The position numbers and the translations under genes are program-made. A stretch of 64,000 nucleotides of DNA from Desulfomonilia bacterium (lineage in GTDB: Bacteria; Desulfobacterota; Desulfomonilia; UBA1062), in assembly GCA_963664325.2 (NCBI GenBank), contig CAXXDQ010000004.1, forward strand, positions 224,001-288,000, read 5' to 3'. The notes beneath the pieces are model-generated. The model saw only the letters and a program-made list of their open reading frames with translations, had not been told where the DNA came from and searched no databases. This document shows, piece after piece, positions 65-37,761 of this stretch (the stretch's first letter is position 1; each line of letters starts with the position of its first letter).

Positions 65-1738
65 TTACCCCATCTTGAGCGACTGGTAGAAGAGCGGTGT
101 GGCAGGGCTTGTTGCGGTCGGGTCGGTCATCACGTTTATGCAGGCTGGTTTGCCGGACTTGAACGCGCGCTCTATGGCCGGGATGATATCCTCGTCCTTG
201 GTGACGAACTCTCCATAGCCGCCCAGACCCTCGACCATCTTCTCGTAATGCCTTGCGCCCAGTTCCGAGCAGACAAGGCGGTCACTGCCTATGGAGAGCT
301 CCTGGCTGTGCTTTATCATGCCCCAGGCGCAGTCGTTGTTGACCACGCATACTATTGGTATGTTGTGCCGGACCGCTGTATCGAACTCCATGGCGTTGAA
401 GCCGAACGATCCGTCGCCGTTCAGCAGCACGACCTTCTTGTCAGGGTTGGCGATCTTGGCGCCTATTGCGAACGGAATGCCCGTGCCCAGGCAGCCGAGC
501 AGCCCGGATGCAGTTCCGATCACGCCAGCCTTGTTCCTGGAGGTAAACCCGACCAGGCCGAAATAAACGGTGTCGCCGCCGTCGGCCATGTAGATCGCGT
601 CCTCGCCGACCGCCTTCTGTATCTGCGCCACGAGGCGTATTGGGTGTATGGGATCGGACGGGGCATTGCGCAGCTTGAGCTCGCTTTCAATGAATGCATG
701 ACTCGCCGCACGCAGGTCCGAGACCCACGAATCGTGGTTCTTCTTCTTTACCGTTCGCGCCAGCTGGTCCAGGACGGAAGCCGCATCGCCCACGAGGCCG
801 ACGTCGGCCTGCCGGTTGCGGTCGATCTCGACCGGATCGATGTCGATGCGCACCACCTTGACATTGGGCGGAATGACCTGGCCGGACTGGAGAAGCCAGT
901 TGAATCGTACGCCCGTTGCGACAAGGACGTCGGTCTGGCCGATACCCAGCAGGAGCCCGGTATTCCCGACGTCCCATATCGAAAGCGGATGATTGTCGGG
1001 CAGCTCGCCCCGCCCGAAGTTCATTATTATGAAAGGCATGCCGGTCTTCTCGATAAATCGCCCCAGGGCGTCTGATGCATTGCTGAACCGGAGTCCGCTT
1101 CCGCCAAGGAACAGTGGCCTTTTGGCCTTATCTATGATTTCGGCCGCTTCCCTTATAGCAGAATCATCCGGCCGCACTGAAAACTTCCGCATCTTGTGCG
1201 GGGGCATAAAGACGTCCTTTATCGCTATCTTTACGTTGAGGATATCGGGCGGAAGCTCCAGGAAGACCGGGCCGGGTCTGCCCTCCTCCGCATGCCTGAA
1301 CGCCATGGCCAGGTATTCGGGAATGCGCTTCGTCTCGTGGCAGGTGGCGCACCATTTCACTATCGGCTTTACGATGTCGAGCTGGTTAATCTCCTGCAGC
1401 GCGCCCTTAAGGTCGTCCCTGAGCGGGTGCTTTCCGCACAGCACCACAAGTGGGGCGTTATCCAGGCATGCGTTTGCAATGCCTGTTATCGCGTTGGTGA
1501 ATCCCGGTCCTGCCGTAACGAGGCACACACCCGTCTTGCCCGTATAAAGCGACCACGCCTCGGCCATCATGGCAGCAGCCTGCTCGTGGCGCACGTCGAT
1601 GGTGCGGAGCCTGTATTCGGTAAAACCGTCCAGAATCTGTTCGATATGCCCGCCGGAAAGGGCGAACACCGTATCTATATTTTCGATCTCTTTAAGGTAT
1701 TTGGCAACCAGATGGCCGCCCGGTATCATCTGTGTCAT
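65..1738 (-). CDS. Thiamine pyrophosphate-dependent enzyme (acetolactate synthase-like / 2-hydroxyacyl-CoA lyase family)
   Basis: 557 aa; VRHEQAAAMMA, TAGPGFTN and the TPP-binding motif GDGSFGF...NN. Confidence 0.88.
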   Translation of the reverse strand: MTQMIPGGHLVAKYLKEIENIDTVFALSGGHIEQILDGFTEYRLRTIDVRHEQAAAMMAEAWSLYTGKTGVCLVTAGPGFTNAITGIANACLDNAPLVVLCGKHPLRDDLKGALQEINQLDIVKPIVKWCATCHETKRIPEYLAMAFRHAEEGRPGPVFLELPPDILNVKIAIKDVFMPPHKMRKFSVRPDDSAIREAAEIIDKAKRPLFLGGSGLRFSNASDALGRFIEKTGMPFIIMNFGRGELPDNHPLSIWDVGNTGLLLGIGQTDVLVATGVRFNWLLQSGQVIPPNVKVVRIDIDPVEIDRNRQADVGLVGDAASVLDQLARTVKKKNHDSWVSDLRAASHAFIESELKLRNAPSDPIHPIRLVAQIQKAVGEDAIYMADGGDTVYFGLVGFTSRNKAGVIGTASGLLGCLGTGIPFAIGAKIANPDKKVVLLNGDGSFGFNAMEFDTAVRHNIPIVCVVNNDCAWGMIKHSQELSIGSDRLVCSELGARHYEKMVEGLGGYGEFVTKDEDIIPAIERAFKSGKPACINVMTDPTATSPATPLFYQSLKMG

Positions 1739-1800
1739 TGATTTCCTCCTCTTTTGGTTCTTGAGCTTTTATACATTTCGATGCGCCGTGATCAGCCTGA

Positions 1801-2166
1801 TCATGTGAGCTTAACGCCGTCGTTGAACCACTGGATGTAGTAGGCCATGCCTTCCACCCTGATCTTGCCCTTGGCCGCGGCCTTGAACGTCGCCTTGTCG
1901 CTGCCCGAGATCATGACCTTGAGCGCGGTGGGGACGTCCGACCAAACGAGCGCGGCATCGCAGGCATGATTTGCTCCTGCTCGCGAGGTCACCTTGCCCC
2001 TGTCAAAAATAAAAAGCCGCCCGCGTTTTCCGTCCGCCGTTTTTATAAGGATTTTCAGGCGAATGGTTCCGATATAACCCTGAAATGCAGGATTGTTCCG
2101 GGATGCCAGCCAGAGTTTCAGATAGAGGACAAACAAAAGCGCTGAAAGGGGCATATATACCTCCAA
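1801..2166 (-). CDS. Small SCP2 sterol-binding-domain-like protein
   Basis: 121 aa; C-terminal 'FKAAAKGKIRVEG' resembles the SCP2 fold; co-oriented with neighbours. Confidence 0.5.
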   Translation of the reverse strand: MEVYMPLSALLFVLYLKLWLASRNNPAFQGYIGTIRLKILIKTADGKRGRLFIFDRGKVTSRAGANHACDAALVWSDVPTALKVMISGSDKATFKAAAKGKIRVEGMAYYIQWFNDGVKLT

Positions 2167-2221
2167 TTTTTAGTAGTCTGGTCTAAGGCCGGCCGTTTTG
2201 AAAAACGGTTTTCCGGCCGGT

Positions 2222-3232
2222 TTAATTCCTTATGCCGTAGTGTTCCTTCACCCAGGGGCCGATTTTGAGCATGGCATCGGGATAAGAGACCGTTGTCTTC
2301 CATCCCAGCTCCTCTTTGGCAAGCGAATTGTCGACATCCATATCACGCCCCATGATGTCGACCGACATGCGAGTAATGGGCGGACGGATGCCAAGGGGAG
2401 TGAAGACCATGTCGCACACCCACGCAACCGCCCTGGCCATGCGATAGGGGATGGCAGGCCCCGGCTTCTTTCCTATGAGCGCCCCCAGATCGGTAACATA
2501 CCGCTTCCAGGTAACATCCCAGTCGTCGCGCAGCTGATAGATTTTGCCTCTGGCGATATCCTTTGTCCCTGCGAGAATGATTCCATCTACCAGGTTGTCT
2601 ACATAGATCAGGCTGGCGCTGTAGCGGCCACCGTCAAAGAGCGGCACGGGCATGCTCAGCATTCTATCCACGATATCACGCACCCAGACGCTGCCCGGGC
2701 CGGTAACGTTGGCGGGACGTATTATGGTGCACGCGATCCTGCCTGCATTGTGGGCCCTCATCACGAGCCCTTCAGCATCGAGCTTGGCGTCGCCATAGGG
2801 CAGTCCGCATTTTACGGGCGTATCGCATTCTCTGAAACCCTTTATATGGCGTGCAAAGCCGATTGCGGCAATTGAGCTGATATAGACAAAACGGGAGGCA
2901 TGGCCGATGGAGGCTTCCAGAATATGCCCGGTGGCGTCAAAGATGGCCGTGTAAAAAAGCTCTTTTCTGCCCCAGTCCGTGACGCGGCCTGCAAGGTGAA
3001 AGACCGTGTCAATTCCGTCGCATATTCCCCCAAGCGTTCCGGGCTGCAGGAGGTCGCCGCGCCTTACATCGCAGCCGAGCTTTTCCAGCTCCTCAGTATT
3101 TTCACCCGGCAGCGCCAGCGCCCGTACCGTATGGCCCTCTTTGAGCAATTCCCTTGTAAGGACTGAACCGATAAACCCTGTCGCCCCGGTAACCAACGAT
3201 CTCATACTCACCTCTCGGAAGTTTTCTGGCAA
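2222..3232 (-). CDS. NAD-dependent epimerase/dehydratase (extended SDR, 3-beta-HSD-like)
   Basis: VTGATGFIG, VFHLAG, YxxxK (YGDAK), RPANVTGPG. Confidence 0.88.
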   Translation of the reverse strand: MPENFREVSMRSLVTGATGFIGSVLTRELLKEGHTVRALALPGENTEELEKLGCDVRRGDLLQPGTLGGICDGIDTVFHLAGRVTDWGRKELFYTAIFDATGHILEASIGHASRFVYISSIAAIGFARHIKGFRECDTPVKCGLPYGDAKLDAEGLVMRAHNAGRIACTIIRPANVTGPGSVWVRDIVDRMLSMPVPLFDGGRYSASLIYVDNLVDGIILAGTKDIARGKIYQLRDDWDVTWKRYVTDLGALIGKKPGPAIPYRMARAVAWVCDMVFTPLGIRPPITRMSVDIMGRDMDVDNSLAKEELGWKTTVSYPDAMLKIGPWVKEHYGIRN

Positions 3233-3422
3233 AGGGCATTATCCCACAGAGGGGCCTGGCTTACAAGCAAATGATTCCACGAGCCCGGGCATATATCCTT
3301 AATATTTCAAAGCCCTTCGAAAACATTTCATAAACGGTCTTCGCGCCTAAATATAATCTTTTATCTCATCATGAATGATGTTAATTTGCTTCTCATCAGA
3401 ATAAATTCCCCGGGAGCGGACA

Positions 3423-4712
3423 ATGAAGATTGCTGTAAGAGGCGCTTACATAGTGGAGAATGTGAACAAGATTTCGACAAACGGGTACGTGCTCATCGAG
3501 GACGGTAAAATTTCCGGCGTTACAAGCAAGTTGCCTGAAGGCGAATTCGAGGTGGTCGGCGGCAGGCACGATATTGTCATGCCCGGCCTTGTCAACGCGC
3601 ACACGCATGCCGCTATGACTCTCTTCAGGGGCATCGGGGATGACATGAAGCTGGAAGTGTGGTGGAACAAATACATGTTCCCGCTTGAAAAGAGGTTCGT
3701 GGACGAGGATTTCGAGTACCTGGGCATGATGCTCGCCTGCATCGAGATGATAAGGAGCGGAACGACCGCGTTCTGCGACGGCTACTTCTTCTCTGATGCC
3801 GGCGCAAAGGCAGTCAAGCAGGCAGGGCTCAGGGCATGGATCGGAGATGTCATCAGCATATACCCGACGCCTTCGGTGAAGGACCCGGCAGCGGCGTTCG
3901 AGACAACCGAGGGGATCATTTCAAGGTGGAAGGACGATGACATGGTGAAACCCACGGTCTTTCCACATGCAGTGTATACCAACGATCTGGAATATCTCGG
4001 GAAGGCCCACGAGCTGGCCTGCAAGCACGATGTAATACTGCAGACGCACATAAGTGAAACAGACCACGAGGTGAGGGAATGCAGGAAAAGGTTCGGCATG
4101 TCGCCCGTAAAAGCGTACGACAGCGTAGGATGCCTCTCCGACAGGGTGGTTGCCGCACACTGCGTGGCTGTTGACGACGAGGATATAAGCATTCTCGCGG
4201 ATAGAAAAGTGACGGTAGCGCATTGCGCAAAGAGCAACAAGAAGCTGGCCTCGGGGATCGCTCCCGTGGATAAAATGATGAAGGCGGGCGTCAGAATAGC
4301 GATAGGTACGGACGGCTGCGCCAGCAACAACAATCTTGACATGTTCAGCGAGATGTCCACGGCGGCGAAGCTCCACAAGGTCAGGAACCTCGATCCCACC
4401 GTCATGAGGGCCCACGATGTGCTCGAGATGGCGACAGTGAACGGCGCCCGCATGTTCAGGATAAAAAACGGAGGAAGGATCGAAAAGGGAAGCCCTGCGG
4501 ACATCATCGTTCTCGACGGAAATGCACCGAACCTGGTCCCTGTCTACAACCCGGTTTCGCATGCCATCTATGCCGCGCACGGTACGAACGTGAAGGACAC
4601 GATAATTGCGGGCAGGGTGGTGATGAAGAACTTCAAATGCCTGACCATCGACGAAAAGGCGGTCATCAGGGAATGCCGCAGGTTGCAGAAGAAGATCGCA
4701 AAAAATATTTGA
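3423..4712 (+). CDS. Amidohydrolase, MTA/SAH deaminase (MtaD-like), paralog 1
   Basis: PGLVNAHTH, HISET, AAHCV, GTDGCASNNNLDM motifs. Confidence 0.85.
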   Translation: MKIAVRGAYIVENVNKISTNGYVLIEDGKISGVTSKLPEGEFEVVGGRHDIVMPGLVNAHTHAAMTLFRGIGDDMKLEVWWNKYMFPLEKRFVDEDFEYLGMMLACIEMIRSGTTAFCDGYFFSDAGAKAVKQAGLRAWIGDVISIYPTPSVKDPAAAFETTEGIISRWKDDDMVKPTVFPHAVYTNDLEYLGKAHELACKHDVILQTHISETDHEVRECRKRFGMSPVKAYDSVGCLSDRVVAAHCVAVDDEDISILADRKVTVAHCAKSNKKLASGIAPVDKMMKAGVRIAIGTDGCASNNNLDMFSEMSTAAKLHKVRNLDPTVMRAHDVLEMATVNGARMFRIKNGGRIEKGSPADIIVLDGNAPNLVPVYNPVSHAIYAAHGTNVKDTIIAGRVVMKNFKCLTIDEKAVIRECRRLQKKIAKNI

Positions 4713-11614: not shown

Positions 11615-12946
11615 ATGCTGTCATGCAAAAGCAAGAATGATGTCTTTGCTGCCGTAAAGGAGTTTAATGTAAGCTTCATACAGTTCTGGTTCACCGATGT
11701 CCTGGGCAGGCTCAAGAGCTTCAGCGTCACGCCGTCCGAGCTCGAAGAGGGCATGGAAGAGGGCATGGGATTCGACGGTTCTTCCATTGAGGGTTTCGCC
11801 CGCATCCAGGAAAGCGACATGATTGCAAAAGCCGACCCGGAAACCTTTCAGCTCATTGCATGGCGGCAGTTTGACAGACCTGTTGCGAGGATGTTCTGCG
11901 ATATAGTAAATCCAGACGGCAAGCCATATGACGGATGTCCCCGCTGGGCTTTGAAGCGGATACTGAAAAAGGCTTCGTCAATGGGATACAAGGTCCTGAT
12001 GGGCCCGGAGCTTGAATACTTCTACTTTGCCAGCGAAAAGAATCCCGAGACCATAGACAAGGCCGGCTATTTTGACGGTCTGCCCATCGACCTGGGCATT
12101 GACATCAGGCGCGATACTATATTCGCCCTGCAGAAAATGGGGATAGAGGTCGAATACAGCCACCACGAGGTAGCGCCTTCACAGCACGAGATCGATCTCA
12201 AATACAGGGAAGCGCTTGTAATGGCGGATATCGTCATGACCTACCGGACAACGGTAAAGGAGATCGCCCGGCAGAAAGGCGTCTATGCCACGTTCATGCC
12301 GAAGCCCATTTTCGGGGAAAACGGCTCTGGCATGCACGTCCACCAGTCGCTTTTCAAGGATGGCAAAAACGCGTTTTTCGAAGAAAAGGATAAGTACCAC
12401 CTCTCGACAGTCGGCAAGCAGTACATAGCGGGAATCCTTACCCACGCGCCTGAGATTACCGCCGTCTGCAACCAGTGGATCAACTCGTACAAAAGGCTTG
12501 TCCCAGGCTATGAGGCACCTGTATATGTGTCATGGGCGCGCCGGAACCGTTCGGCCATGGTAAGGGTTCCCATGTACAAGCCAGGCAAGGCCAACGCCAC
12601 CCGCATGGAATACCGCTCGCCCGACCCCGCCTGCAACCCGTATCTTGCATTTGCGGTAATGCTCGCCGCAGGCCTCAAGGGCATTGAAGGCAAATACAAA
12701 CTCCCGGCCCCTGTCGAGGAGGACATCTTTGAAATGGATGAAGAGGAACGCACCAAAGCAGGCATCATCTCGCTGCCGGGCAGCCTGCATGAGGCTGTCT
12801 GCGAACTGCAGAAGAGCAAGCTCGTCCGCGAAACCCTTGGAGACCACATTTTCAATAAATTCATAGAAAACAAAAAAAAGGAATGGGACGCATTCAGAAC
12901 CCATGTAAGCAGGTTCGAGATAGAAAACTACCTGCCGGTGCTGTAA
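11615..12946 (+). CDS. glnA: Glutamine synthetase type I
   Basis: FDGSSIEGF, HHEVAPSQHEI, FMPKPIFGENGSGMHVH, NSYKRLVPGYEAP; start placed at the ATG after GGAGG. Confidence 0.9.
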   Translation: MLSCKSKNDVFAAVKEFNVSFIQFWFTDVLGRLKSFSVTPSELEEGMEEGMGFDGSSIEGFARIQESDMIAKADPETFQLIAWRQFDRPVARMFCDIVNPDGKPYDGCPRWALKRILKKASSMGYKVLMGPELEYFYFASEKNPETIDKAGYFDGLPIDLGIDIRRDTIFALQKMGIEVEYSHHEVAPSQHEIDLKYREALVMADIVMTYRTTVKEIARQKGVYATFMPKPIFGENGSGMHVHQSLFKDGKNAFFEEKDKYHLSTVGKQYIAGILTHAPEITAVCNQWINSYKRLVPGYEAPVYVSWARRNRSAMVRVPMYKPGKANATRMEYRSPDPACNPYLAFAVMLAAGLKGIEGKYKLPAPVEEDIFEMDEEERTKAGIISLPGSLHEAVCELQKSKLVRETLGDHIFNKFIENKKKEWDAFRTHVSRFEIENYLPVL

Positions 12947-12985
12947 AAAACAAAAGCGGGACAGGTTCCGGCCTGTCCCGTCCGC
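12946..12985. terminator. Hairpin downstream of glnA
   Basis: GGGACAGG-ttccgg-CCTGTCCC stem-loop; A-run on the left gives a U-tract on the minus strand. Confidence 0.55.
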
Positions 12986-13166
12986 ATCGATATCATCCGC
13001 CATCCCTTTAACGGGCGGGTTTCTGAAAACATTGATTTAGTGTCCTTCTGGATATGTGGCTGATAAGGTATTTCGCACCATTTTATCAGGATTTTCCCCC
13101 TTGTTAATATATGCGGAACCCCCGATAGTAATAATCAAGTTTTTTACCCAAAAGTAACCTCCTTCC

Positions 13167-13200
13167 AGCCAGGCGCCTATAAGCCTGGCTATTTTTTTAT
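13167..13200 (+). terminator. Intrinsic terminator-like hairpin in an intergenic region
   Basis: AGCCAGGC-gcctataa-GCCTGGCT followed by ATTTTTTT. Confidence 0.6.
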
Positions 13201-13421
13201 CTACTCATCCTCCCCACATACACCTCGGAATACTTCCTTATGCTCACCAAAATTCCTGATACACTCATCCACAAGCGGCCTGTTTACCTTCAGTGTATCT
13301 TGGAGTCAGGTCCTGTTATTTGCTTACTATCCTCATTCAGTCGTTTAATGTGCCTGCTTATCGTCAAGGGTTTTTCATTATCAAGTCATGTGCCCCTTTC
13401 GCGTAATTGGGGGAGGGTATT

Positions 13422-14150
13422 TCAGAAAAACCGGCCCTTTACCAGGGCGTGTCCAAGTACAAAAAAACACAGCGCATCGATCACCGAGAAGATGCCGACA
13501 CCGGCCCAGGCCCAGGTCGTCAGCTGAACATTCAGCACACGGGTTTTCTCGTGGAGGGTATCGGCAATATCGTCCGTCCGTTTGCGGACATACAGGTAGG
13601 CGGCCAGTACCGCAAGCATGGGAAGCGCATAACCGATGTTATAGAGCAGAATATTTATGATTGCGCCATGGATGCTCAAACGAAGCGCTGCATACTTTCC
13701 AAGGGCAATTATATACGGGATGGAAAGAGGAAATGATGATACGGAAATAAACGCCCCGAGGCCAAAGGCGAAAAAGCCGTTCATGGACTTCAGTTTTGAT
13801 ACTATTAGATTCTGGGAGCGGCCCGGAGGTGCATGCCTTTTTTTGCGGAAATACCAGACCCCGATGAGAATCATTATAATACCGGAAATAAGCTCAGACT
13901 GATAATATACAGAATTCGGAATGTTTTGCGTTGAAGGGAAATACCTGCCAAGGATCAGGTGCAGCTGGTCAAGCGCCAGATAACCTCCGACGCCGCATGC
14001 AAAGTAAGCCCCGCTCAAACCGGCAAGGTAAGAGAGACTGTTTCGTAACGGCCTTATGGTTGTAAGCAGCAGAACAAATATAATGATTTGTTGCGTTGTG
14101 GAAAGGCTGTCGAACAAGGATAGCGACAAAGTGAATGGAATCGTACTCAT
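13422..14150 (-). CDS. Integral membrane protein, GAP/LysE-translocator-like
   Basis: About 6 hydrophobic segments; FDS.S near the N-terminus; 'PYIIAL' and 'LYNIGYALP'. Confidence 0.6.
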   Translation of the reverse strand: MSTIPFTLSLSLFDSLSTTQQIIIFVLLLTTIRPLRNSLSYLAGLSGAYFACGVGGYLALDQLHLILGRYFPSTQNIPNSVYYQSELISGIIMILIGVWYFRKKRHAPPGRSQNLIVSKLKSMNGFFAFGLGAFISVSSFPLSIPYIIALGKYAALRLSIHGAIINILLYNIGYALPMLAVLAAYLYVRKRTDDIADTLHEKTRVLNVQLTTWAWAGVGIFSVIDALCFFVLGHALVKGRFF

Positions 14151-29653: not shown

Positions 29654-29805
29654 TGTGCCTTATGGCGGGACATCGCGTCCCGTTTTATCCCCCCGCAATA
29701 TTTAATCCCGCATTTCATACAGCAACGGCTCTGCCTTGGGAAGAAAATACCGCCAAGTGTCCGCAGTGCGCTGCGGCGGCTATACCGCTCCGCCGCCAGC
29801 GAACC

Positions 29806-32027
29806 CGATTAATCCTTTATTCATCAAGGTTTAGATTCTCACGCTAAATTAATATTGTGACAGAACTCGTCACAAAAAATCTATGTCTCAATCCTTTATT
29901 CATCAAGGTTTAGATTCTCACGACACTAACGAATTGCACCTTTCCCATGCTTAATCAGGATTCGTCTCAATCCTTTATTCATCAAGATAGTGGTTCTCCC
30001 CACATAAAACACTATTTCAAACCACAGGCGCAAGAGGTTTCCACATCTCAATCCTTTATTCATCAAGGTTTAGATTCTCACCTGTCAATGGCAGTTTATT
30101 GGATTTAATGTGCGGACCTGGATAGTCTCAATCCTTTATTCATCAAGGTTTAGGTTCTCACTGCAGCACGAAGCCGAGCTGCAAGACCTGATAGACGGGG
30201 CGGTCTCAATCCTTTATTCATCAAGGTTTAGGTTCTCACAATCCATTCAGGAAGCGGTCGGAAGATTTCTTCATGAAGTGGTCTCAATCCTTTATTCATC
30301 AAGGTTTAGATTCTCACTACTTCTTGAAAAGTGAGGAAATGGGGATAAGCGAAGAGGAAGTCTCAATCCTTTATTCATCAAGGTTTAGATTCTCACGATA
30401 AAACCCTCACCGGCACGGAACAGGAATGCATAGTCTCAATCCTTTATTCCTCAAGGTTCAGGTTCTCACTGAGATCGAGGAGCTCCACGGGAAAGTGACA
30501 AAAGATGTCAAGGTTTCAATCCTTTATTCATCAAGGTTCAGGCTCTCACTCGACGTAAAATACGGCAGCGGGAAAACAATATTTATGGAAAATTGGTCTC
30601 AATCCTTTATTCATCAAGGTTTAGATTCTCACGGTTAACACTCGGATGATACCGCAGCCAAAAGTAAATCAGTCTCAATCCTTTATTCATCAAGGTTCAG
30701 GTTCTCACGCCGAGAGCTATGTAAAGGAGAACCGTTAACAAGGATACTCAGAGTCTAAATCCTTTATTCATCAAGGTTCAGATTCTCACGCGGGCAGGTG
30801 ACAACTTATTATTCGCTTAAAGGTACTTTTATGTCTCAATCCTTTATTCATCAAGGTTTAGATTCTCACGAATGATTTAATCGTAGAACTTTTGAGGATA
30901 TCAGGTGAGAAGCGTCTCAATCCTTTATTCATCAAGGTTCAGATTCTCACGGATAGAATTATGTCAGACGCAATACCAACCCGGGGAGTGAAGTTTCAAT
31001 CCTTTATTCATCAAGGTTTAGATTCTCACGCAGAAAAAATAACGGTTATACGGTTTTACTGGCAAACGTGTCTCAATCCTTTATTCATAAAGGTTCAGGT
31101 TCTCATATCCAAAGATTTGCGAGGCAATCAGCGACGAGAAAAGAATGTCTCAATCCTTTATTCATCAAGGTTCAGATTCTCACAGGTAAATTTGCTGCTG
31201 CGAAAAAGCTTGAGCGATATCCGGTCTCAATCCTTTATTCATCAAGGTTTAGATTCTCACTCACACGCCAGTTTATATCAATGACCGAATTCATGAAATT
31301 TTAGTCTCAATCCTTTATTCATCAAGGTCTAGATTCTCACCAACTGGCAAAGTCGCAATGTTTCCCGGAAATAGTTATGTCTCAATCCTTTATTCATCAA
31401 GGAAATGGTTCTCACGGAAACAAAGGTGATACTGGTCCTAAAGGTGATACGTCTCAATCCTTTATTCATCAAGGTTTAGATTCTCACAAATTAACCATCC
31501 CGCCGCAGCTCAAGGCTATAATAGGAGAGTCTCAATCCTTTATTCATCAAGGTTCAGATTCTCACTCAAAAAAATTGTGGGCCAATGTGCGTATTTTCTT
31601 CAAAGTCTCAATCCTTTATTCATCAAGGTTAAGGTTCTCACGGCGGCAGTAATAGTGTACGCCGTCTATATTTTCAAATCTTCGTCTCAATCCTTTATTC
31701 ATCAAGGTTTAGATTCTCACTAAAAATCTTGAAGGAGAGAGGCTATGAAAAAAAGCTGCATTATCGTCTCAATCCTTTATTCATCAAGGTTTAGATTCTC
31801 ACGTAAACTTATTATCGGTTGATCTTTGGGAGCATCGAAACAGGTCTCAATCCTTTATTCATCAAGGTTCAGGTTCTCACTCATTTATAACCAATAGTTC
31901 TAGTTGTGCATATATGTCTCAATCCTTTATTCATCAAGGTTCAGGTTCTCACTACTATCGTCCGGATATCGGCACGCCTGGTTCGATTCTGTCTCAATCC
32001 TTTATTCATCAAGGTTCAGGTTCTCAC
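29806..32027 (-). CRISPR. CRISPR array 1: 29 repeats, 28 spacers
   Basis: 37-bp repeat, + strand GTCTCAATCCTTTATTCATCAAGGTTYAGRTTCTCAC. On the minus strand it has a CCTT/AAGG hairpin and ends ATTGAGAC. Spacers 35-46 nt; degenerate terminal repeat at 29806. Confidence 0.97.
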
Positions 32028-32190
32028 GGTTGTTTCATTTTTACCCTTAAATACATGAACTTACAACCGGCTTTTCTGTAAGGTCTTATTTTCCCGGTCA
32101 AGGGACAGTATAAATTCATATGTTTTCCTCTTGTCAAAGAACAGATGTTTATCTGTTTTCAAAGAGTTAGGTGTATTTCTGTAACCTACC
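32028..32190 (-). promoter_or_regulatory. Leader of array 1
   Basis: AT-rich; first ~115 nt closely match the array 2 leader; minus-strand TTGACA (32132-32137) and TATACT with a long 19-nt spacing; IHF-like TTTCAAAGAGTTA at 32157-32169. Confidence 0.8.
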
Positions 32191-32220
32191 CCTTTTTTCA
32201 GCCGTTTTGAAAGCTCCGTA

Positions 32221-32493
32221 TCAGAGTATATACACGTCCTTGTCCTGCATCACTTCTCCGTGTCCCAGAACCTCAATCGTCTTTTCACAGGCCCGGCAAA
32301 TGACGTATATCCTCAGACTGCCTTCCTCTTCCACAAGACCCGCCACCCGGTGTTTTAACTCACTCAACTGCCCTTCATCCATGCGGCACTCGAATACACT
32401 ATATTGAACCCTGGAACCGTAATCAAGAAGGTCCTTGGCTAACTTAGTCCGGCGGGAGTCATCAACTACATCATAGGAGACGATATAAAGCAT
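32221..32493 (-). CDS. cas2: CRISPR-associated Cas2
   Basis: MLYIVSYDV, YGSRVQYSVFEC, SLRIY.IC..C; lies between the two arrays. Confidence 0.95.
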   Translation of the reverse strand: MLYIVSYDVVDDSRRTKLAKDLLDYGSRVQYSVFECRMDEGQLSELKHRVAGLVEEEGSLRIYVICRACEKTIEVLGHGEVMQDKDVYIL

Positions 32494-32495
32494 GC

Positions 32496-32525
32496 TCAAA
32501 CCTCAAGCCGGAACGGCGTATACAC
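32496..32525 (-). pseudogene. Possible 3' remnant of cas1
   Basis: Reads V-Y-T-P-F-R-L-E-V-stop, with the stop 2 nt before the cas2 ATG, like a Cas1 C-terminus at a cas1-cas2 junction. Confidence 0.45.
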
Positions 32526-32545
32526 CGCTCCGCTGCCAGTAGTCC

Positions 32546-33286
32546 CGATTAATCCTTTATTCATCAAGGTTTAGATTCTCACTGGAAAGGCGGAAACACC
32601 AGACGAAAAGGCTTTTTGGGCGTCTCAATCCTTTATTCATCAAGATTTAGATTCTCACGGCGTGAAAAGCAAGGAGTACTTGCAGGATCTTGTCAGGGTC
32701 TCAATCCTTTATTCATCAAGGTTCAGGTTCTCACATTATTACCGACTGGAATATGCCAGAGAATAATGGTCTTTTGTCTCAATCCTTTATTCATCAAGGT
32801 TTAGATTCTCACCGATAGATGAATTGGTGTTCTTGGGTTGCGCCAGAATAGTCTCAATCCTTTATTCATCAAGGTTCAGATTCTCACGGCAGAAAGAAGT
32901 TCAGCGCATGATCAACTCGAAAAGTTTGCGTCTCAATCCTTTATTCATCAAGGTTCAGATTCTCACTCGGCATCACGATAAACACACATCAGCAGGAACA
33001 GTGGATTAAGTCTCAATCCTTTATTCATCAAGGTTCAGGTTCTCACTCCTATGACCAGGTCCTGCAGATGAGAAAAGATAACGAATTCTAGTCTCAATCC
33101 TTTATTCATCAAGGTTCAGGTTCTCACCTAGCAAGAAAAATATACGATCTTCATGCAATGAGAAGTGGTTGGTCTCAATCCTTTATTCATCAAGGTTTAA
33201 ATTCTCACTTTACTATCGTCCGGATATCGGTAGTCCCACGCAGATAGAAGTCTCAATCCTTTATTCATCAAGGTTTAGATTCTCAC
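32546..33286 (-). CRISPR. CRISPR array 2: 10 repeats, 9 spacers
   Basis: Same 37-bp repeat family; same degenerate terminal repeat (CGATT instead of GTCTC) as array 1. Confidence 0.97.
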
Positions 33287-33404
33287 GGTTGGTTCATTTT
33301 TGTCCTTAAATACATGAACTTACAACCGGCTTTTCTGTAAGGTCTTATTTTCCCTATGATCGGGCCGTATAAATTCATCTATTTTTCTTTTGTCAAAGAG
33401 CAGG
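33287..33404 (-). promoter_or_regulatory. Leader of array 2
   Basis: Near-copy of 32028-32145, including CCTTAAATACATGAACTTACAACCGGCTTTTCTGTAAGGTCTTATTTTCCC and TTGACA. Confidence 0.8.
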
Positions 33405-33483: not shown

Positions 33484-34488
33484 TTACTTTAAATACTGCA
33501 TTTCTTTCGCAAGTGTAACAGCCAGTTTGCTTGGATCATCTTTACTATAAATCACTATTCTCAGATGGCGTAAATCAAAAGGGATGTTATTGATATCTTG
33601 AGCCAGCATGATTACTTGTTTTCCATAAGCATGGGCTATACCAAGTTCATAATAGACATTTGGATTTTTTTGAGTCAATTCCACTACAACAATATTTGCT
33701 TTAAGAAGATTCTCCCTTATTCTATTCATTATGCCGCCAGTAAAAATTTCCTCATCCACACGAACGCATCTCTTGGACATGCTCTCAGTCGCAAACTTAA
33801 TGCCTTTTTCATAAACCTCTGTAAATTGATCTGAGAATGGCATGATAACAAACACCAAGTCTTTCTCAACTTGTGGTTTTCCTTTATCTAAGCGCACGAG
33901 GGTTTCTGTTCCAGGGATCGGATATAATGTTTCTTCATCGTAATCTACACGCAAATAAAAAGCATCTATATCATCAAATGAAAAGGATGCATTGTATGCT
34001 CCTATTGACATTGGCTTGGTTCCTCCGGTCAGATCGATAGCCATTTGCCTTTGGGAAAGCCCTTCTCCTGCACTTATCTCTTCTACCCATTCAACGATTT
34101 TTTCTTCCATCAATTTTTGATCTTCACTCTGAATGATCATTTCCCGAATTTTTACATTCAGATTAACTTTCCGAATACACTCCTTAATTTGAGTTAAATG
34201 CATTCGATGAAAATGTTTTGATATCTCACTGAAAGCCAATGTAAGATAATCAGGTTTAAAAAGGCCTGCCATTATAACAACGTTTTCCATTGAAAATCCC
34301 ACTGGTATAAATAGAGCTGGATATTTCGGGCGGCCTCCTTGATCAAGCTCTATTCCGTGATCATGAGCTCGTTTGGAAACCACGCTAAGCGATTTATTGT
34401 AAATCTCGTCAAAATAAAACTTAGGGTCGTAATTCTTCTTTTTCCAAATATCAAAAAGACCTTTGAAAATCTTGTAATCATATTCCAT
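33484..34488 (-). CDS. CARF domain fused to a nucleoside 2-deoxyribosyltransferase-like/TIR-like domain; putative cOA-activated effector
   Basis: CARF motifs LFIPVGFS and IDLTGGTKPMS, PIPGTE linker; C-terminal VFVIMPF...NPNVYYELGIAHAYGK...PFDL. Confidence 0.85.
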   Translation of the reverse strand: MEYDYKIFKGLFDIWKKKNYDPKFYFDEIYNKSLSVVSKRAHDHGIELDQGGRPKYPALFIPVGFSMENVVIMAGLFKPDYLTLAFSEISKHFHRMHLTQIKECIRKVNLNVKIREMIIQSEDQKLMEEKIVEWVEEISAGEGLSQRQMAIDLTGGTKPMSIGAYNASFSFDDIDAFYLRVDYDEETLYPIPGTETLVRLDKGKPQVEKDLVFVIMPFSDQFTEVYEKGIKFATESMSKRCVRVDEEIFTGGIMNRIRENLLKANIVVVELTQKNPNVYYELGIAHAYGKQVIMLAQDINNIPFDLRHLRIVIYSKDDPSKLAVTLAKEMQYLK

Positions 34489-34500
34489 TTCTCTCCCCTT

Positions 34501-35391
34501 TTATGCAAATGTTGATATCTTTTCTTTAAGGACTACTGCAAAATCTTCACCTTTCACTTTGTTATTCTTCATTTCCTTCAAGTCATCTATATCTACTATT
34601 AGTATCAGCCTTGCCTCCGTTCCTATTTGTCTGTAGAATATTTTTCTAAGTAATTCCCAAATGGGATCGTTTTTCCCGGGCATAGTCCTGCAAATCAATA
34701 GAGTGAGCGGCACGTTTGACAACACTGTATCCTGAAAGTACAAAGTATATTTGAAGCATTGCATAAGATCATTAGTAACAGGTTTCTTGTTTTTGCACTC
34801 TACAATCAGTCTGTTGAACTTGTAGCCAACTCGTATAGCTGGTTCAAATTGATCCCGTAATCTTTCTCTTATTTGATAACAGCCATCTAATTTTAAGTTT
34901 CGACTTCTCCATTGAGGAGGATCAATCCGAATCAATTCTTCTTGAAATAAACAATCAAAAAAATAGATCACATAACTTTCAAATATTTTGCCATCTTCGC
35001 GATGTCCCAAAGGGGCAGTTTTGACTTTATCAAATGCATCCTCTACTTGTTGATTCACAAAACCACATGCAAGATCAAAATCATAAAGAATACTATCTAC
35101 TTTTTTTTGTATTCGTTGGAACAATTGCTTAGTTTTCTCAGGGTTCAATGTGAATCTTTGTATAAGGACTTCAACTTCTGCCATTTTATTATTTAATCGT
35201 TCAGTAGTAATTTTAAAGTTTTTAAAACAAGACATTGCACTAATAGGTTCTTTCAACATACTTCGATATTGTTCTACAGCTTTTGAACAACCACATTCTT
35301 CCAGACTCTCTCGAAAGATGTTTATTAGTTCAATTTCATGCTGATTTAAATCAGCTAAATACCTTTCTATGAAAACATCATTAGCTTCCAT
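34501..35391 (-). CDS. Putative PD-(D/E)xK (Mrr-like) endonuclease with N-terminal helical domain
   Basis: GKIFE, LDG, IVECKN and QxxxY (QCFKY) in the C-terminal half; in the operon directly after csm4. Confidence 0.7.
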   Translation of the reverse strand: MEANDVFIERYLADLNQHEIELINIFRESLEECGCSKAVEQYRSMLKEPISAMSCFKNFKITTERLNNKMAEVEVLIQRFTLNPEKTKQLFQRIQKKVDSILYDFDLACGFVNQQVEDAFDKVKTAPLGHREDGKIFESYVIYFFDCLFQEELIRIDPPQWRSRNLKLDGCYQIRERLRDQFEPAIRVGYKFNRLIVECKNKKPVTNDLMQCFKYTLYFQDTVLSNVPLTLLICRTMPGKNDPIWELLRKIFYRQIGTEARLILIVDIDDLKEMKNNKVKGEDFAVVLKEKISTFA

Positions 35392-35409: not shown

Positions 35410-36360
35410 TCAATCAGTTTTTTCAGCTAACTCAATCATCATTCCCAATCCATTTCGGAATACTTTATGTTCCTCAATAAAATCTTTGGGGGTTACATCT
35501 AATAATTGTCCCAAAATTGATTGTCTAAATAGAGATCCTTCTGAGAACATATGGCATTTTCTTCTTTTCATTTGTTTTATCGATGAATTCGAAAATATCC
35601 ATCCACCCCGCGAAAGAATACTATAAGATAGTGCATGCTGGGCTTCAGTCTCTTTAGGACAACAAAGTGAAAGCGTGTAATAGTATTTATCATCGGCTAT
35701 CTTTGTTTCAAACAATTCGGTCCACGTAGTGAGATCATCAACCTGCTTGAACTCGGCTGTATAATGACCATAACCTATACTTCTATCCCCACCGATCCCG
35801 CTTTCACCGAGTAACCGAATACAGAGTTCCAACTTTTCTCTCAAGGTAGTATCTTTCAGGTTTATCAAGAAATAGAGTCCTCCACCTTCTTTTATTGTTG
35901 TGCCTTTTTCCTCGAAAATGTTTGTTGATTTTGTGATCCTGTCGATAGTGACCCTTGGGCTTATAAAACCATTAATTAATCTAGGAAGAGGATTTATGAT
36001 ATCTTTATTTGCAATTCTTTCCTGGTTGCCTCTAGCCAAATTATTAAAATCAGAAAGCTCTAAAAATGGGATTTCCTTGAGCTTCTCAGCGTACAAAGTA
36101 CCAGTGCCATATGGTGTTGGAAGGTAGTACTCGTCGAGATAATAGGGGAAAGCTGAGGAAATAGTTAAACAAGGGGGGTTCTGCTGCATATCAGAAATTA
36201 AAGACGAAATTGATTTATCATTTGAAACTCTAACCCATTCGTTAAATATACCACTGAATAATGTATCAGAATGGATTATTCCAACAGATTCTTTCTCAAA
36301 AATATCTGCCGTTCTAATTTTAACAGCCCGATTGAACTTGAGCTTGGCCAGCAACAGCAT
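35410..36360 (-). CDS. csm4: Type III-A Csm4 (Cas5 group)
   Basis: IHSDTLFSG, ISSAFPY, PRVTIDR, GIGGDRSIGYG, RGGW, FSEGS. Confidence 0.93.
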   Translation of the reverse strand: MLLLAKLKFNRAVKIRTADIFEKESVGIIHSDTLFSGIFNEWVRVSNDKSISSLISDMQQNPPCLTISSAFPYYLDEYYLPTPYGTGTLYAEKLKEIPFLELSDFNNLARGNQERIANKDIINPLPRLINGFISPRVTIDRITKSTNIFEEKGTTIKEGGGLYFLINLKDTTLREKLELCIRLLGESGIGGDRSIGYGHYTAEFKQVDDLTTWTELFETKIADDKYYYTLSLCCPKETEAQHALSYSILSRGGWIFSNSSIKQMKRRKCHMFSEGSLFRQSILGQLLDVTPKDFIEEHKVFRNGLGMMIELAEKTD

Positions 36361-36367
36361 ATTCTGA

Positions 36368-37255
36368 TTACCCTTTCAGGAAGTTGATGATCGGGTCTAT
36401 TTTATTTCTAGCATCAGAGATAGAAATATTGGTGTCAACTGTACCATATTCTTTGGAAGTGTCTCCTTGGAAATATGCCAAACTACGGGCTACAAAGTTG
36501 GTAAGTTTGAATTCTATCTTCCCATACCCCCGCGAAGTGTACCCACCCAAACCTTCATTTTGTATGAGTTCCATGGCCGTTAACAGATTGTTCAGGTCTT
36601 TTTTCAGTATCTGTTTATCTAAAGAGTAGTTATCTTTTCCTGTAATCCTAACATTCTCCACCGAATAAACCATTTCAAAGATGAACCTGTTTTCAGGTAG
36701 AACTCGTTCAACTCTCCTAGGATTGGCTGACATACTTATGCGGTCTATGCCTGTCTCTACCTTAACCTCTGTGAATTGAGGATTATCGCCGAAAAGGCTC
36801 GTATCTATTAGTGCATCTCTTACTGTTAGCAGGGCAGGCCAGTTTTCTGCCTTTTGATCTTTTCGCGATGCTCTATCATCTCTTATGGGTATATCATACC
36901 CGCTTGATCCGAAAACTCTGCAAACATCACATGCTATCGCATATTTAACATCATCACAGCAATGAACTAAAACTCTGTTTCTTAAGGTGCCTATGTTCCT
37001 ATTAGAGGTAAGTGTTTCAACTTTATTGTCCTTAGTACGATAGCCGAACTTTTCAAATGTGCTCCGAAGCTTTCCTTTAAGAGAACTCCCTGGAATGTAA
37101 GGCAGATTATTACCCGAATCCCTGAGAACTGGCAAATCGATGCCACCAATTTGCATCGATTCTTGCGAGCCCCCTATGTGCAGACCTGTCTTTAGTACGA
37201 TGTTGCCCCTAATAAATATTTTACCGATAAGATGTCTCTGACCTCGTTCACTCAT
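36368..37255 (-). CDS. csm3: Type III-A Csm3 (Cas7 group RNase)
   Basis: TGLHIGG, catalytic Asp in IGGID.PV.RD, PYIPGSSLKGKLRS, CDVCRVFG, IDR, GLGGYTSRGYG. Confidence 0.95.
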   Translation of the reverse strand: MSERGQRHLIGKIFIRGNIVLKTGLHIGGSQESMQIGGIDLPVLRDSGNNLPYIPGSSLKGKLRSTFEKFGYRTKDNKVETLTSNRNIGTLRNRVLVHCCDDVKYAIACDVCRVFGSSGYDIPIRDDRASRKDQKAENWPALLTVRDALIDTSLFGDNPQFTEVKVETGIDRISMSANPRRVERVLPENRFIFEMVYSVENVRITGKDNYSLDKQILKKDLNNLLTAMELIQNEGLGGYTSRGYGKIEFKLTNFVARSLAYFQGDTSKEYGTVDTNISISDARNKIDPIINFLKG

Positions 37256-37275: not shown

Positions 37276-37761
37276 TTAATTTCCGCCACAATACTTATGA
37301 TATGCTACAATAGCCTCGGAAAAACGGCATAACCTCTCGTAGTCCTCTATACTTGTAACACAATCCAGCAGAGGATTTATCACTTCAAAGAAAGGAGAAA
37401 CCTCATTTGGCTGCCTAGCCTTTGCATTGGCAAGTTGCGGTTTAAGCATGAAAATTTCAGGCAGTACCTTTTCTTGAAATAGCTCCGTTGCATTGGGCAT
37501 AAGACGAATGCTTAATATAGTAGCTTTAATGTTCAAAAGGGACTCATAGAACCTTCGAAGTTGTGCTGCCTTCAGTCGTACATCATAGCTAGCGAGTAGT
37601 TTGCCAAGGGCAAAGCTACACACTACTAGCTTTTCTGAAGGGAGCAAACTCCTAACTGTTGGCCTCTCCGAAGCACCTTCAAATATCTTATTTTTGATTG
37701 AGATTGCTTCTTTGAGACCCCATTCCTCACAAAGCCTCTCTTCCATTGATTTTGTAGTCAT
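37276..37761 (-). CDS. csm2: Type III-A Csm2 (Cas11 small subunit)
   Basis: QLRRFY, LKPQLA...AR, FSEAIVAYHKY; overlaps the cas10 stop. Confidence 0.92.
   Translation of the reverse strand: MTTKSMEERLCEEWGLKEAISIKNKIFEGASERPTVRSLLPSEKLVVCSFALGKLLASYDVRLKAAQLRRFYESLLNIKATILSIRLMPNATELFQEKVLPEIFMLKPQLANAKARQPNEVSPFFEVINPLLDCVTSIEDYERLCRFSEAIVAYHKYCGGN

Follow-up and report, generated by a model that had tools for sequence, protein, structure and literature searches.

Genes and arrays at the locus

The window, by which we mean the whole 64,000-nucleotide stretch of DNA that was analyzed, carries a CRISPR-Cas operon on its minus strand. Within this operon lies a small gene, hereafter called X, that is the subject of this report. 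From upstream to downstream on that strand, the features are:

40206..41264, minus strand: cas6 (PADLOC Cas6, 368.5 bits; Pfam CRISPR_Cas6)
37727..40120, minus strand: cas10/csm1, 797 aa (TIGR02578, 385.7 bits; cut-off 170)
37276..37761, minus strand: csm2, cas11 family (PF03750, 77.4 bits; TIGR01870, 61.4 bits, cut-off 30.6)
36368..37255, minus strand: csm3, cas7 family, 295 aa (TIGR02582, 166.5 bits; cut-off 90)
35410..36360, minus strand: csm4, cas5 family, the gene just before X (TIGR01903, 234.3 bits, cut-off 55; Pfam Csm4_C)
34501..35391, minus strand: X, the putative nuclease gene (ATG-start open reading frame and its translation, 296 aa)
33484..34488, minus strand: gene of the CARF-NDT effector, immediately after X (Pfam CARF_Card1, 27.7 bits, above cut-off; Nuc_deoxyrib_tr, weak)
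about 29806-32027 and 32546-33286, within 29798..33403, minus strand: two CRISPR arrays, 39 repeats in all

The Csm1, Csm2, Csm3, and Csm4 models all scored above their curated cut-offs, a result that assigns the locus, at the level of sequence, to type III-A (Csm). The repeats (family D1) number 39 copies at a spacing of 72-83 nt, and each array is followed by a homologous leader-like stretch. A 154-nt duplication, D3, occupies 31991-32144 and 33250-33403, and its two copies are 89% identical.

Two parts of the canonical system appear to be absent. Cas10 has GGDD at residue 541, and its alignment to TIGR02578 starts only at profile position 92. The single HD dipeptide in the protein (residue 65) is not kept in six orthologs; in all seven full-length Cas10 sequences GGDD is present and no HD dipeptide is conserved. 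The loss of the HD DNase, which the initial annotation had claimed, is thus borne out. As to Csm5, TIGR01899 gave nothing above cut-off in any of three X-carrying genomes (G000, 95.6% complete; G401; G402), while the control for this search found matches in 5 of 14 control genomes. By these searches the locus departs from type III-A in having neither Csm5 nor the HD nuclease motif of Cas10.

X directly follows csm4, as csm5 does in the canonical III-A operon, and its earlier placement in the csm5 position is therefore apt. Like Csm5, a RAMP of the Cas7 family that caps the Csm complex, it sits after csm4 and before the gene of a CARF effector; unlike Csm5, it has another fold and a nuclease active site. 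An identity as a Csm5/Cas7 RAMP was rejected, given that neither a RAMP nor a TIGR01899 match was obtained and that the model combines a helical bundle with a nuclease fold. Also rejected was a Cas4-like adaptation nuclease: among the loci with annotated flanks, cas1 adjoins in only one (L006). Cas1 was not found in the window's own genome.

The gene next to X had been said to encode a CARF protein, and it does so according to both Pfam (CARF_Card1) and Foldseek, in which the CARF domain of Thermus thermophilus Csm6 (3.1e-9) and the protein Cam1 (1.4e-8) were matched. The AF2 model of this CARF-NDT protein has a pLDDT of 91.3 and also matches the nucleoside 2'-deoxyribosyltransferase 8qc0 (2.9e-4). 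Its family comprises 81 clusters.

The X gene and its family

The reading frame of X is real. An AGAGG Shine-Dalgarno-like motif lies upstream, the csm4 stop is 18 nt before the start, and 12 nt separate the X stop from the start of the CARF-NDT gene. Translation of the minus-strand frame agrees with the 296 residues first reported.

Searches of X against Pfam, NCBIfam, PADLOC, and PHROG returned zero model matches. No CARF, SAVED, or RAMP model hit X at E <= 0.1, which agrees with the original view that such parts are missing, and neither a DNA-binding nor a sensor domain was detected by model searches or in the AF2 model. Against the PDB, only chance matches were returned, by the single sequence (transferrin, at an E-value of at least 0.13) and by the profile (designed helical bundles); FokI and BspD6I were found in neither sequence search. 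A distant relative reached through the X profile (L018, 232 aa) did match PDDEXK_3, at 23.4 bits (cut-off 22), whereas X itself has no Pfam match at E <= 0.1.

The family is rare, with 32 clusters among 1.8 billion representatives. Our main alignment, A2, holds 31 of the 35 family proteins, and the four omitted are fragments of 66-136 aa (P0013, P0026, P0029, and P0032). Metagenomes were scanned for X with a 10-row alignment. The A2 profile drew mostly helical low-complexity candidates from a 5.8-billion database, in which 6 matches were scored among 8000 candidates. Neither X nor a CARF-NDT effector is described in the literature searched; the family may be listed in the supplementary tables of the classification papers.

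A fixed place in the operon

X lies directly after csm4 in 12 of 12 loci with upstream sequence (L009 is cut), and in all 11 loci with downstream sequence the gene immediately after X is that of the CARF-NDT protein. These 13 loci and the window represent about seven lineages by sequence identity. The frames of csm4 and X overlap by 14-17 nt in four loci (L005, L007, L008, and L011); the overlap of X with the CARF-NDT gene is 4 nt in each of L005 and L006, and 19 nt in L015. Linkage of X homologs to cas10 had been proposed as a check, and among full-length homologs with readable context there is no unlinked case.

The unfailing succession of X and the CARF-NDT gene, together with these frame overlaps, favors a possible, though doubtful, explanation in which X works with the CARF-NDT protein and not with Csm. 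The two might form a cOA-switched two-component effector, the CARF protein recruiting or releasing X. Alternatively, they might act in a two-step pathway, in which X would degrade DNA and the NDT/DNPH1-like N-glycosidase would destroy the freed nucleotides, denying them to the phage for reuse. Two further observations point the same way. An X homolog and a CARF-NDT homolog bear consecutive locus tags (AB1422_01070 and AB1422_01075), and P0035, which among the X homologs is the most distant, traces like the CARF-NDT homolog P0101 to a contig 2264 bases long from one and the same source, a coincidence that serves only as a proxy. However, adjacency at the 3' end of an operon accounts for co-inheritance without a functional tie, and the CARF-NDT protein unites sensor and enzyme in itself, as does Csm6, whose gene occupies this position in the operon. 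A complex prediction with two CARF-NDT chains and one of X (score 0.00, mark 0.32) bears neither way on pairing.

Fold and active site of X

The AlphaFold2 model of X, made from the 31-row alignment, has a pLDDT of 92.5 and a pTM of 0.89. It divides as follows:

35020..35391, minus strand: N-terminal four-helix bundle, residues 1-124 (AF2 helices 2-32, 38-52, 59-81, and 84-124)
34504..35019, minus strand: predicted PD-(D/E)xK nuclease domain, cleavage module of the FokI/BspD6I type, residues 125-296 (VIA-align)
34747..34887, minus strand: catalytic core D169 ... E198-C-K200-N201 ... Q211xxxY215 (A2 conservation)

The alpha/beta domain of the model spans residues 131-296, and the four helices lie within residues 2-124, much as the initial annotation had anticipated with its "about 120 helical N-terminal residues". 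That annotation had also read a restriction-endonuclease pattern in the sequence, and the pattern holds, as E152 ... D169 ... E198-C199-K200 ... Q211xxxY215. D169, E198, K200, and N201 are invariant in A2 (31/31); Q211, Y215, P228, and R235 are kept in 30/30; E152 is less strict (25/30). In the model, D169 opens strand 170-174, the ExK motif lies on strand 194-200, and QxxxY falls in helix 206-217. The predicted topology is thus that of a canonical PD-(D/E)xK enzyme, and membership in this superfamily follows from the core layout and the invariant residues. The A2 relatives are only 18-54% identical to X, and dN/dS values of 0.23-0.41, from four locus pairs, show the gene to be under purifying selection; because these residues are fixed at such distances and under such selection, the motif is beyond chance.

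The structural matches of X are mostly restriction-endonuclease folds. In VIA-align, the nuclease domain is closest to the R.BspD6I small subunit (2p14; Z 11.9, rmsd 2.9, 147 aligned), FokI (2fok; Z 11.3, rmsd 3.1, 154 aligned), and the catalytic domain of Nt.BspD6I (2ewf; Z 10.7, rmsd 3.4, 158 aligned). The first two outscore the next nuclease families by 2-3 Z units. We conclude from the model that the type IIS cleavage modules of FokI and BspD6I are the nearest structural relatives of the catalytic domain, with the equivalence of the triads deduced from topology; at the sequence level, no Pfam nuclease model was matched at E <= 0.1. X has in common with these enzymes the D...(D/E)xK layout and, with the BspD6I small subunit, the condition of a catalytic module that has no DNA-recognition domain. 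It differs from them in several respects: identity is only 12-13%, a four-helix bundle stands where the recognition domain would be, and N201 and QxxxY are extra invariant residues of X. Further, X resides in a CRISPR operon with no methyltransferase, unlike the type IIS enzymes.

The original description of X as "Mrr-like" was right as to superfamily. It was less so in detail, since Mrr_cat gave no match (E <= 0.1) and the Mrr-related LlaBIII nuclease scored Z 8.1, versus 10.7-11.9 for the FokI/BspD6I modules. ESM Atlas clusters with Mrr_cat in 42-47% of their members matched with scores of 0.88-0.89, which we treat as a lead only.

Can1, Can2, and Card1 (Crf4 in the 2025 nomenclature) are, like X, PD-(D/E)xK nucleases proposed as or known to be ancillary to type III systems, but their nuclease is fused to a CARF domain, which X does not have. 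Their Z values are lower (Card1, 7.8; Can2, 7.4), the CARF_PDDEXK models of PADLOC gave no match, and the N-terminus of X is all-helical, not Rossmann-like as CARF is.

The N-terminal bundle

The bundle is the fastest-evolving part of X and the divergence hot-spot of the locus. Its mean pairwise identity is 15.9%, versus 36.9% for the C-terminal domain (325 pairs), and Y11 is its sole residue conserved at 80% or more. Its structural matches are generic helical bundles (Z <= 10.4); the sensor domains of McpS and TorS are among them, but for helical bundles their Z values carry no significance. A Cas11-like N-terminus was rejected, as hhalign of the X family against the Csm2 family of the locus gave a probability of 0.2%. 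Among the best 50 matches listed for the helical domain there is no Csm2 or Cmr5 chain. Crn4, Csm5, and other RAMP chains are absent from the structural matches listed for X, an absence that says little.

Such a domain could belong to an effector that acts on its own. X might respond to its own trigger: the variable bundle could detect a ligand or a phage protein, or the nuclease domain could itself bind a cyclic oligonucleotide and oligomerize allosterically, as NucC does. NucC, a nuclease of CBASS and type III systems that cA3 activates, is a homotrimer with a cA3 pocket and hexamerizes on ligand binding; it shows that cA3 can be sensed by an enzyme of this superfamily that lacks CARF and SAVED. 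It resembles X in being a PD-(D/E)xK nuclease that serves type III systems with neither CARF nor SAVED, and it is a structural neighbor (Z 8.3-8.5). The divergence of the bundle would suit a domain in contact with phage factors, and the McpS and TorS matches, though not significant, would be compatible with sensing. Nevertheless, we consider autonomy unlikely. The NucC alignment is poor (rmsd 4.5-5.0 over 150-152 aligned residues) and ranks below FokI and BspD6I; NucC has no N-terminal helical bundle; and the locus of X already has a CARF sensor. The PADLOC collection, which we take to include NucC models, gave 0 families for X at E <= 0.1. The initial annotation had likewise remarked that X did not look like NucC. 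Moreover, the bundle has no conserved polar pocket residues, and because its dN/dS is 0.24-0.62, positive selection on it is not shown.

Recombination and the question of docking

Compared with the proteins of the window, Csm3 is 42-65% identical across loci and X 26-38%. In one locus pair, L001/L002, dS is 0.05 for X and 0.08 for CARF-NDT, versus 0.31 for Csm3, 0.49 for Csm4, 0.61 for Csm2, and 0.77 for Cas10. By these values X and CARF-NDT form one recently shared recombination block, apart from the csm genes, which lends weight to a partnership between the two. The shared block occurs in this pair only, however, and histories differ in L005/L006, where dS is 0.37 for the N-terminal part of X, 0.10 for its C-terminal part, and 0.27 for CARF-NDT. 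In the latter pair the csm4 genes are 100% identical in nucleotides, whereas the N-terminal parts of X are only 81-84% identical; that part therefore has no shared history with csm4.

Several of these observations speak against a docking of X on the Csm complex. The presumed docking bundle is the least conserved part of X while the Csm subunits are far better conserved; it has no profile similarity to Csm2/Cas11; it lacks the history of csm4 in L005/L006; and in L001/L002 X shares its block with CARF-NDT, not with the csm genes.

Other roles considered

X might instead be a metal-dependent phosphodiesterase that linearizes cOA, i.e., a new class of ring nuclease that would switch off the CARF-NDT pathway. 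We hold this to be quite improbable, and we know of no PD-(D/E)xK enzyme that is a ring nuclease. The closest solved CARF domain to that of the neighbor is from T. thermophilus Csm6, a type III ancillary ribonuclease that reportedly degrades its own cOA activator; the CARF domain of the CARF-NDT protein may therefore itself remove cOA. PMC6599890 reports a ribonuclease ancillary to type III systems that breaks down the cOA by which it is activated. In favor of the ring-nuclease idea, X always accompanies a CARF effector, and none of the seven proteins of its operon matches a known ring nuclease model. According to PMC12669027, most loci with an active-cyclase Cas10 encode a ring nuclease, and the exceptions may hide new ones. 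Yet the ring nucleases described in the sources consulted are CARF- or SAVED-related or are the histidine-based Crn4, which bioRxiv 10.64898/2026.09.16.751991 presents as a small dimeric domain with a catalytic histidine and cyclic-phosphate products. At 296 aa, X also exceeds the 250-aa maximum length for ring-nuclease annotation used in PMC12409355.

Less probable still is a role in RNA processing, with X taking over the Csm5-linked maturation of crRNA 3' ends found in canonical III-A systems. X does occupy the csm5 gene position, and Csm5 is absent. In canonical systems Csm5 recruits housekeeping nucleases for crRNA maturation. A link between housekeeping nucleases and type III immunity is reported in PMC9762709. 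Still, the nearest structural relatives of X are all DNA endonucleases, X has no RNA-binding module, and no observation here bears directly on crRNA length.

X as a proposed DNase arm of the system

In FokI and BspD6I, a module of this type carries a single active site, cannot recognize DNA by itself, and acts only once a partner has positioned or dimerized it. Because modules of this type depend on a partner, we read X as the DNase arm of the system. Since the Cas10 of this system has lost its usual built-in DNase, X probably supplies the DNA cutting that is missing. The best reading of X is that of a partner-recruited, Mg-dependent DNase. The analysis shows the fold, the intact and conserved active site, purifying selection, the fixed gene order, and the absence of HD and Csm5; we infer that X acts on DNA, that it needs a partner, and which partner this would be, the Csm complex or the CARF-NDT protein. 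The initial annotation had already offered three options, namely docking on Csm, a hidden sensor, and pairing with the CARF protein, and each may still apply. In the form that we favor, at a probability of roughly one in three, X is a predicted metal-dependent PD-(D/E)xK endonuclease and a fixed operon component of a rare III-A variant that has neither the HD motif nor Csm5, and it serves as a Csm-docked DNase arm.

In this favored form, the four-helix bundle would hold X on the Csm effector complex, in the place left by Csm5 and the HD domain. X would then cut DNA, and possibly RNA as well, near the transcript recognized by the crRNA. In parallel, the intact Cas10 cyclase would signal to the CARF-NDT effector.

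Extra nucleases thought to ride on class 1 effector complexes offer parallels. PMC12669027 describes a variant, I-E3, in which Cas11 is joined in one protein to a PD-(D/E)xK nuclease, and PMC6546367 proposes that an HNH nuclease, Csx26 of a Sulfolobus type III variant, rides on the type III complex. X differs from the I-E3 fusion in being a separate protein whose helical domain has no profile similarity to the Cas11/Csm2 of its locus; this likeness to I-E3 and Csx26 is one of arrangement. A stronger version of docking, which we entertain only tentatively, makes X a true Csm subunit. Its bundle would cap the complex at the Csm5 site, and its FokI-like head would be a crRNA-guided, transcript-activated DNA cutter. 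Such a protein would amount to an "RNA-guided FokI" of natural origin, taking over from Csm5 as well as from the HD domain of Cas10.

Significance

Where the Cas10 of a type III system has no HD nuclease, the usual assumption is that the system depends on cOA-activated effectors alone. X is a previously unnamed small nuclease in a rare type III system of this kind: a conserved, sensor-less protein with the fold of a type IIS cleavage module, always found with a type III system that has neither HD nor Csm5. X and the CARF-NDT effector are thus two uncharacterized proteins in a small system of six to seven genes that is open to reconstitution. If X pairs with the CARF-NDT protein, the two would make up an effector arm of a new kind, built from two enzymes. 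Should X instead ride on the complex, type III effectors would have a second, independent DNase route, and nature would have joined RNA guidance and a FokI-like cutter in compact form.

The csm5-position gene and its operon

The protein studied here, X, is the product of a single minus-strand open reading frame that stands sixth in a closely packed operon. The Csm proteins of the window all score well over their curated NCBIfam cut-offs.

Features of the X operon and its CRISPR arrays
40206-41264, minus strand, cas6
37727-40120, minus strand, cas10/csm1
37276-37761, minus strand, csm2
36368-37255, minus strand, csm3
35410-36360, minus strand, csm4
34501-35391, minus strand, X (296 aa)
33484-34488, minus strand, CARF-NDT gene (CARF plus nucleoside 2'-deoxyribosyltransferase-like domain)
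29798-33403, downstream of the operon, two CRISPR arrays (39 repeats in total)

Only 18 nt separate the csm4 stop from the X start, which is preceded by an AGAGG motif, and 12 nt separate the X stop from the start of the CARF-NDT gene. On the minus strand the repeat terminates in the tag-like ATTGAGAC, which gives the arrays the same orientation as the cas operon. Each array adjoins one copy of a 154-nt duplicated segment (copies 89% identical) composed of the terminal repeat and ~117 nt of leader-like sequence. Cas1 (PF01867) has no match anywhere in the window's own genome (95.6% complete), although 39 repeats are present; the adaptation genes are absent or unassembled.

The window Csm3 is unusually long (295 aa) and has a Cys-rich insertion, HCCDDVKYAIACDVC, that may bind zinc and could be relevant to a complex without Csm5. 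The gene immediately upstream of cas6 encodes a staphylococcal-nuclease (SNase) homolog (41412-41906, also minus strand). By eye, its N-terminal segment appears hydrophobic and signal-like; the gene is absent from the corresponding place in the related loci examined.

X is a conserved PD-(D/E)xK nuclease

Searches of X against Pfam, NCBIfam, PADLOC and PHROG models (E <= 0.1) gave only chance helical matches under cut-off, and sequence searches of the PDB likewise gave chance matches only. With exhaustive phmmer against 1.84 billion representatives, 32 proteins were recovered at E <= 1e-3, 23 at <= 1e-10 and 7 at <= 1e-30 (query counted); a word-indexed search recovered 7 among 5.8 billion clusters. 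We aligned 31 of the 35 available proteins, excluding four fragments of 66-136 aa. D169, E198, K200 and N201 are invariant (31/31), as are Q211, Y215, P228 and R235 where present (30/30), and E152 is retained in 25 of 30.

The AlphaFold2 model built on this alignment (pLDDT 92.5, pTM 0.89) has four long helices spanning residues 2-124, followed by an alpha/beta domain in which D169 opens strand 2, the ExK motif lies on strand 3 and QxxxY falls in the next helix. The initial annotation, made from sequence, had described ~120 helical residues followed by E...D...ECK...QxxxY, and both descriptions are borne out. Given the invariance and the placement in the model, this pattern is a conserved active site and not a chance one.

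Foldseek gave no PDB match at E <= 1e-3, but restriction-endonuclease folds make up most of its list. The C-terminal domain (residues 125-296) was compared by VIA-align with 48,161 representative chains, and again with Foldseek's best 997.

Structural relatives of the X nuclease domain
R.BspD6I small subunit (2p14): Z 11.9, 147 aligned, rmsd 2.9
FokI cleavage domain (2fok): Z 11.3, 154 aligned, rmsd 3.1
Nt.BspD6I catalytic domain: Z 10.7-11.3, 157-158 aligned, rmsd 3.0-3.4
AF1548: Z 8.8, 112 aligned, rmsd 3.0
NucC: Z 8.3-8.5, 150-152 aligned, rmsd 4.5-5.0
AspBHI, NucS, LlaBIII nuclease: Z 8.1-8.2, 103-134 aligned, rmsd 3.2-4.9
Card1: Z 7.8, 130 aligned, rmsd 3.7
Can2: Z 7.4, 128 aligned, rmsd 3.9

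Alignment, model and structural ranking together place X among the PD-(D/E)xK nucleases, with type IIS cleavage modules as its nearest relatives of solved structure. The earlier label “Mrr-like” thus holds at the level of the superfamily but not of the family: Pfam Mrr_cat itself does not match X, and the language-model lead in that direction was weak (clusters partly bearing Mrr_cat, 0.88-0.89). Nor, by the tests run, is X a member of other candidate families. The model and sequence-family searches rule out a RAMP protein or Csm5, in agreement with the lack of a RAMP G-rich loop in the initial annotation; NucC is ruled out by sequence (structural Z 8.3-8.5); and membership tests for the Can/Card families were negative. 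A CARF or SAVED protein is also ruled out, the models having detected no sensor domain, as had been read from the sequence.

The N-terminal domain (residues 1-124) resembles only generic helical bundles (Z <= 10.4, which is not significant for helical folds). X therefore consists of an intact nuclease module and a variable helical bundle, with no sensor or DNA-binding domain detectable. That X is an autonomous effector with a hidden trigger is, in our judgment, unlikely.

Distant relatives of the nuclease domain occur elsewhere. Such a domain forms the C-terminal part of ~455-aa proteins in three loci (L035, 610-1974; L037, 1486-2862; L018, 662-2031, in two frames), which share with X the D...ExKN...QLNRY and RCIL.L.D.DL motifs and have a conserved N-terminal domain of unassigned function; their 3.5-kb loci show no CRISPR context. 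Another locus, L017, encodes a 678-aa P-loop ATPase with a similar C-terminal domain. Among the distant relatives retrieved with the X profile, one scores barely over the cut-off of Pfam PDDEXK_3.

X is fixed in a type III-A variant

Pattern scans yielded two X loci in species-representative genomes (158 candidate stretches) and 11 in metagenome contigs (49 candidate stretches). We called open reading frames in all 13 and matched them to the seven proteins of the window operon. Wherever upstream sequence is available (12/12 loci; L009 is truncated), the gene immediately before X is csm4. In all 11 loci with sequence beyond X (L012 and L013 stop within it), the next gene encodes a CARF-NDT homolog, and cas10 is present in all nine that extend far enough. 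Start/stop overlaps tie X to csm4 and to the CARF gene in several loci. The 13 loci do not count as independent cases: L008 to L011 are almost identical to one another, L012 equals L013, L005-L007 share 77-83% identity in X, and L001 and L002 are 97% identical; with the window, they represent about seven lineages.

Two samples at phylum level, of 401 genomes each, contained full-length X in the centre genome only; the other three matches per sample were to the nuclease domain alone, within unrelated larger proteins. Homologs unlinked to cas10, which the initial annotation had named as counting against its reading, thus did not appear among the full-length homologs with readable context.

GGDD is retained in all seven full-length Cas10 proteins of X loci, and no conserved HD dipeptide is seen close to the N-terminus of any of them; the Csm1 model aligns to the window Cas10 only from profile position 92. 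No sequence from the window's own genome (95.6% complete) or from two X-bearing MAGs passed the cut-off of the Csm5 model. Its only match, of 18.5 bits, lies inside csm3, while the same model responds in 5 of 14 control genomes. In this III-A variant, which lacks both the HD motif and Csm5, X has a fixed place between csm4 and the gene of a CARF effector.

In L014, an IS1595-family transposase gene of opposite orientation (2441-3418) splits X into pieces at 1775-2434 and 3477-3770 (1775-3770 overall). In L006, cas1 directly follows the CARF-NDT gene, and an insertion separating cas6 from cas10 contains two large AAA-type ATPase genes (1090-4528), one of which also shows weak similarity, under cut-off, to the CARF-associated HTH and PDDEXK_9 models.

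The CARF-NDT neighbour

The 334-aa CARF-NDT protein matches Pfam CARF_Card1 over cut-off, and Foldseek relates its CARF part to T. thermophilus Csm6 (3.1e-9) and Cam1 (1.4e-8). Its C-terminal domain is of the nucleoside 2'-deoxyribosyltransferase/DNPH1 type (Pfam E 8.5e-4, under cut-off; Foldseek 8qc0, 2.9e-4; weak PDB sequence match to DNPH1, 0.06-0.09), and R243, N275, N277, E281 and K290 are invariant in 48 sequences. No solved Cat1 chain matched the protein by sequence. The full-length family comprises at least 81 clusters (E <= 5e-45) among the 120 matches listed. The C-terminal domain alone is widespread, being found in 60 of 401 genomes, nearly all matches being to residues ~200-330, and elsewhere is fused to DUF4062, TIR or sigma-54 AAA+ parts. 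The domain composition suggests a cOA-activated N-glycosidase acting on nucleotides. We found no paper characterising a CARF-NDT effector, and it appears to be uncharacterised. In L001, a SMODS nucleotidyltransferase gene and a DUF6602 gene (12594-14093) lie directly 3' of the CARF-NDT gene; the pair looks like a second, CBASS-like signalling system beside the type III locus.

Evolution of X

Within the operon, X evolves fastest: identity to the window copy is 26-38%, against 42-65% for Csm3 and 43-57% for CARF-NDT. Mean pairwise identity over 325 pairs is 15.9% in the N-terminal bundle and 36.9% in the nuclease domain. With dN/dS of 0.23-0.41 versus 0.05-0.12 for Csm3, selection on X is purifying but looser.

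Synonymous distances show that the locus is a mosaic. Between L001 and L002, dS is 0.05 for X and 0.08 for CARF-NDT, and 0.77, 0.61, 0.31 and 0.49 for Cas10, Csm2, Csm3 and Csm4, respectively. Between L005 and L006, csm4 is 100% identical in nucleotides, the N-terminal part of X 81-84% and the nuclease domain 95-98%. Neighbouring genes in the L001/L002 and L005/L006/L007 operons differ up to 15-fold in synonymous divergence, and one apparent breakpoint falls inside X, between its two domains. Recombination in these loci seems to be frequent.

Discussion

The FokI and BspD6I modules have one active site each and need a partner for positioning and dimerisation. This requirement leads us to favour a role for X as a DNase that is recruited by a partner. 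Of the candidates, we slightly prefer the Csm complex, with a probability that we put at roughly one in three: the HD domain and Csm5, both missing here, are complex-borne. The main rival is the CARF-NDT protein, a possible if somewhat less probable partner; the recombination block that it shares with X in one locus pair speaks for it, but it is already a complete sensor-enzyme unit, and this further inclines us toward the complex. We consider it doubtful that X is a new ring nuclease, and more doubtful still that it is a crRNA-maturation enzyme.

We found no description of X in the literature searched, survey papers included, and an unnamed listing may exist elsewhere. Conceptually, the nearest cases in print are the I-E3 Cas11-PD-(D/E)xK fusion, whose nuclease has been proposed to be carried by a class 1 complex (PMC12669027), and the HNH nuclease Csx26 (PMC6546367). 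Acting as a recruited DNase, X would most resemble in function the small, catalytic subunit of a type IIS enzyme, but one set in a CRISPR operon.
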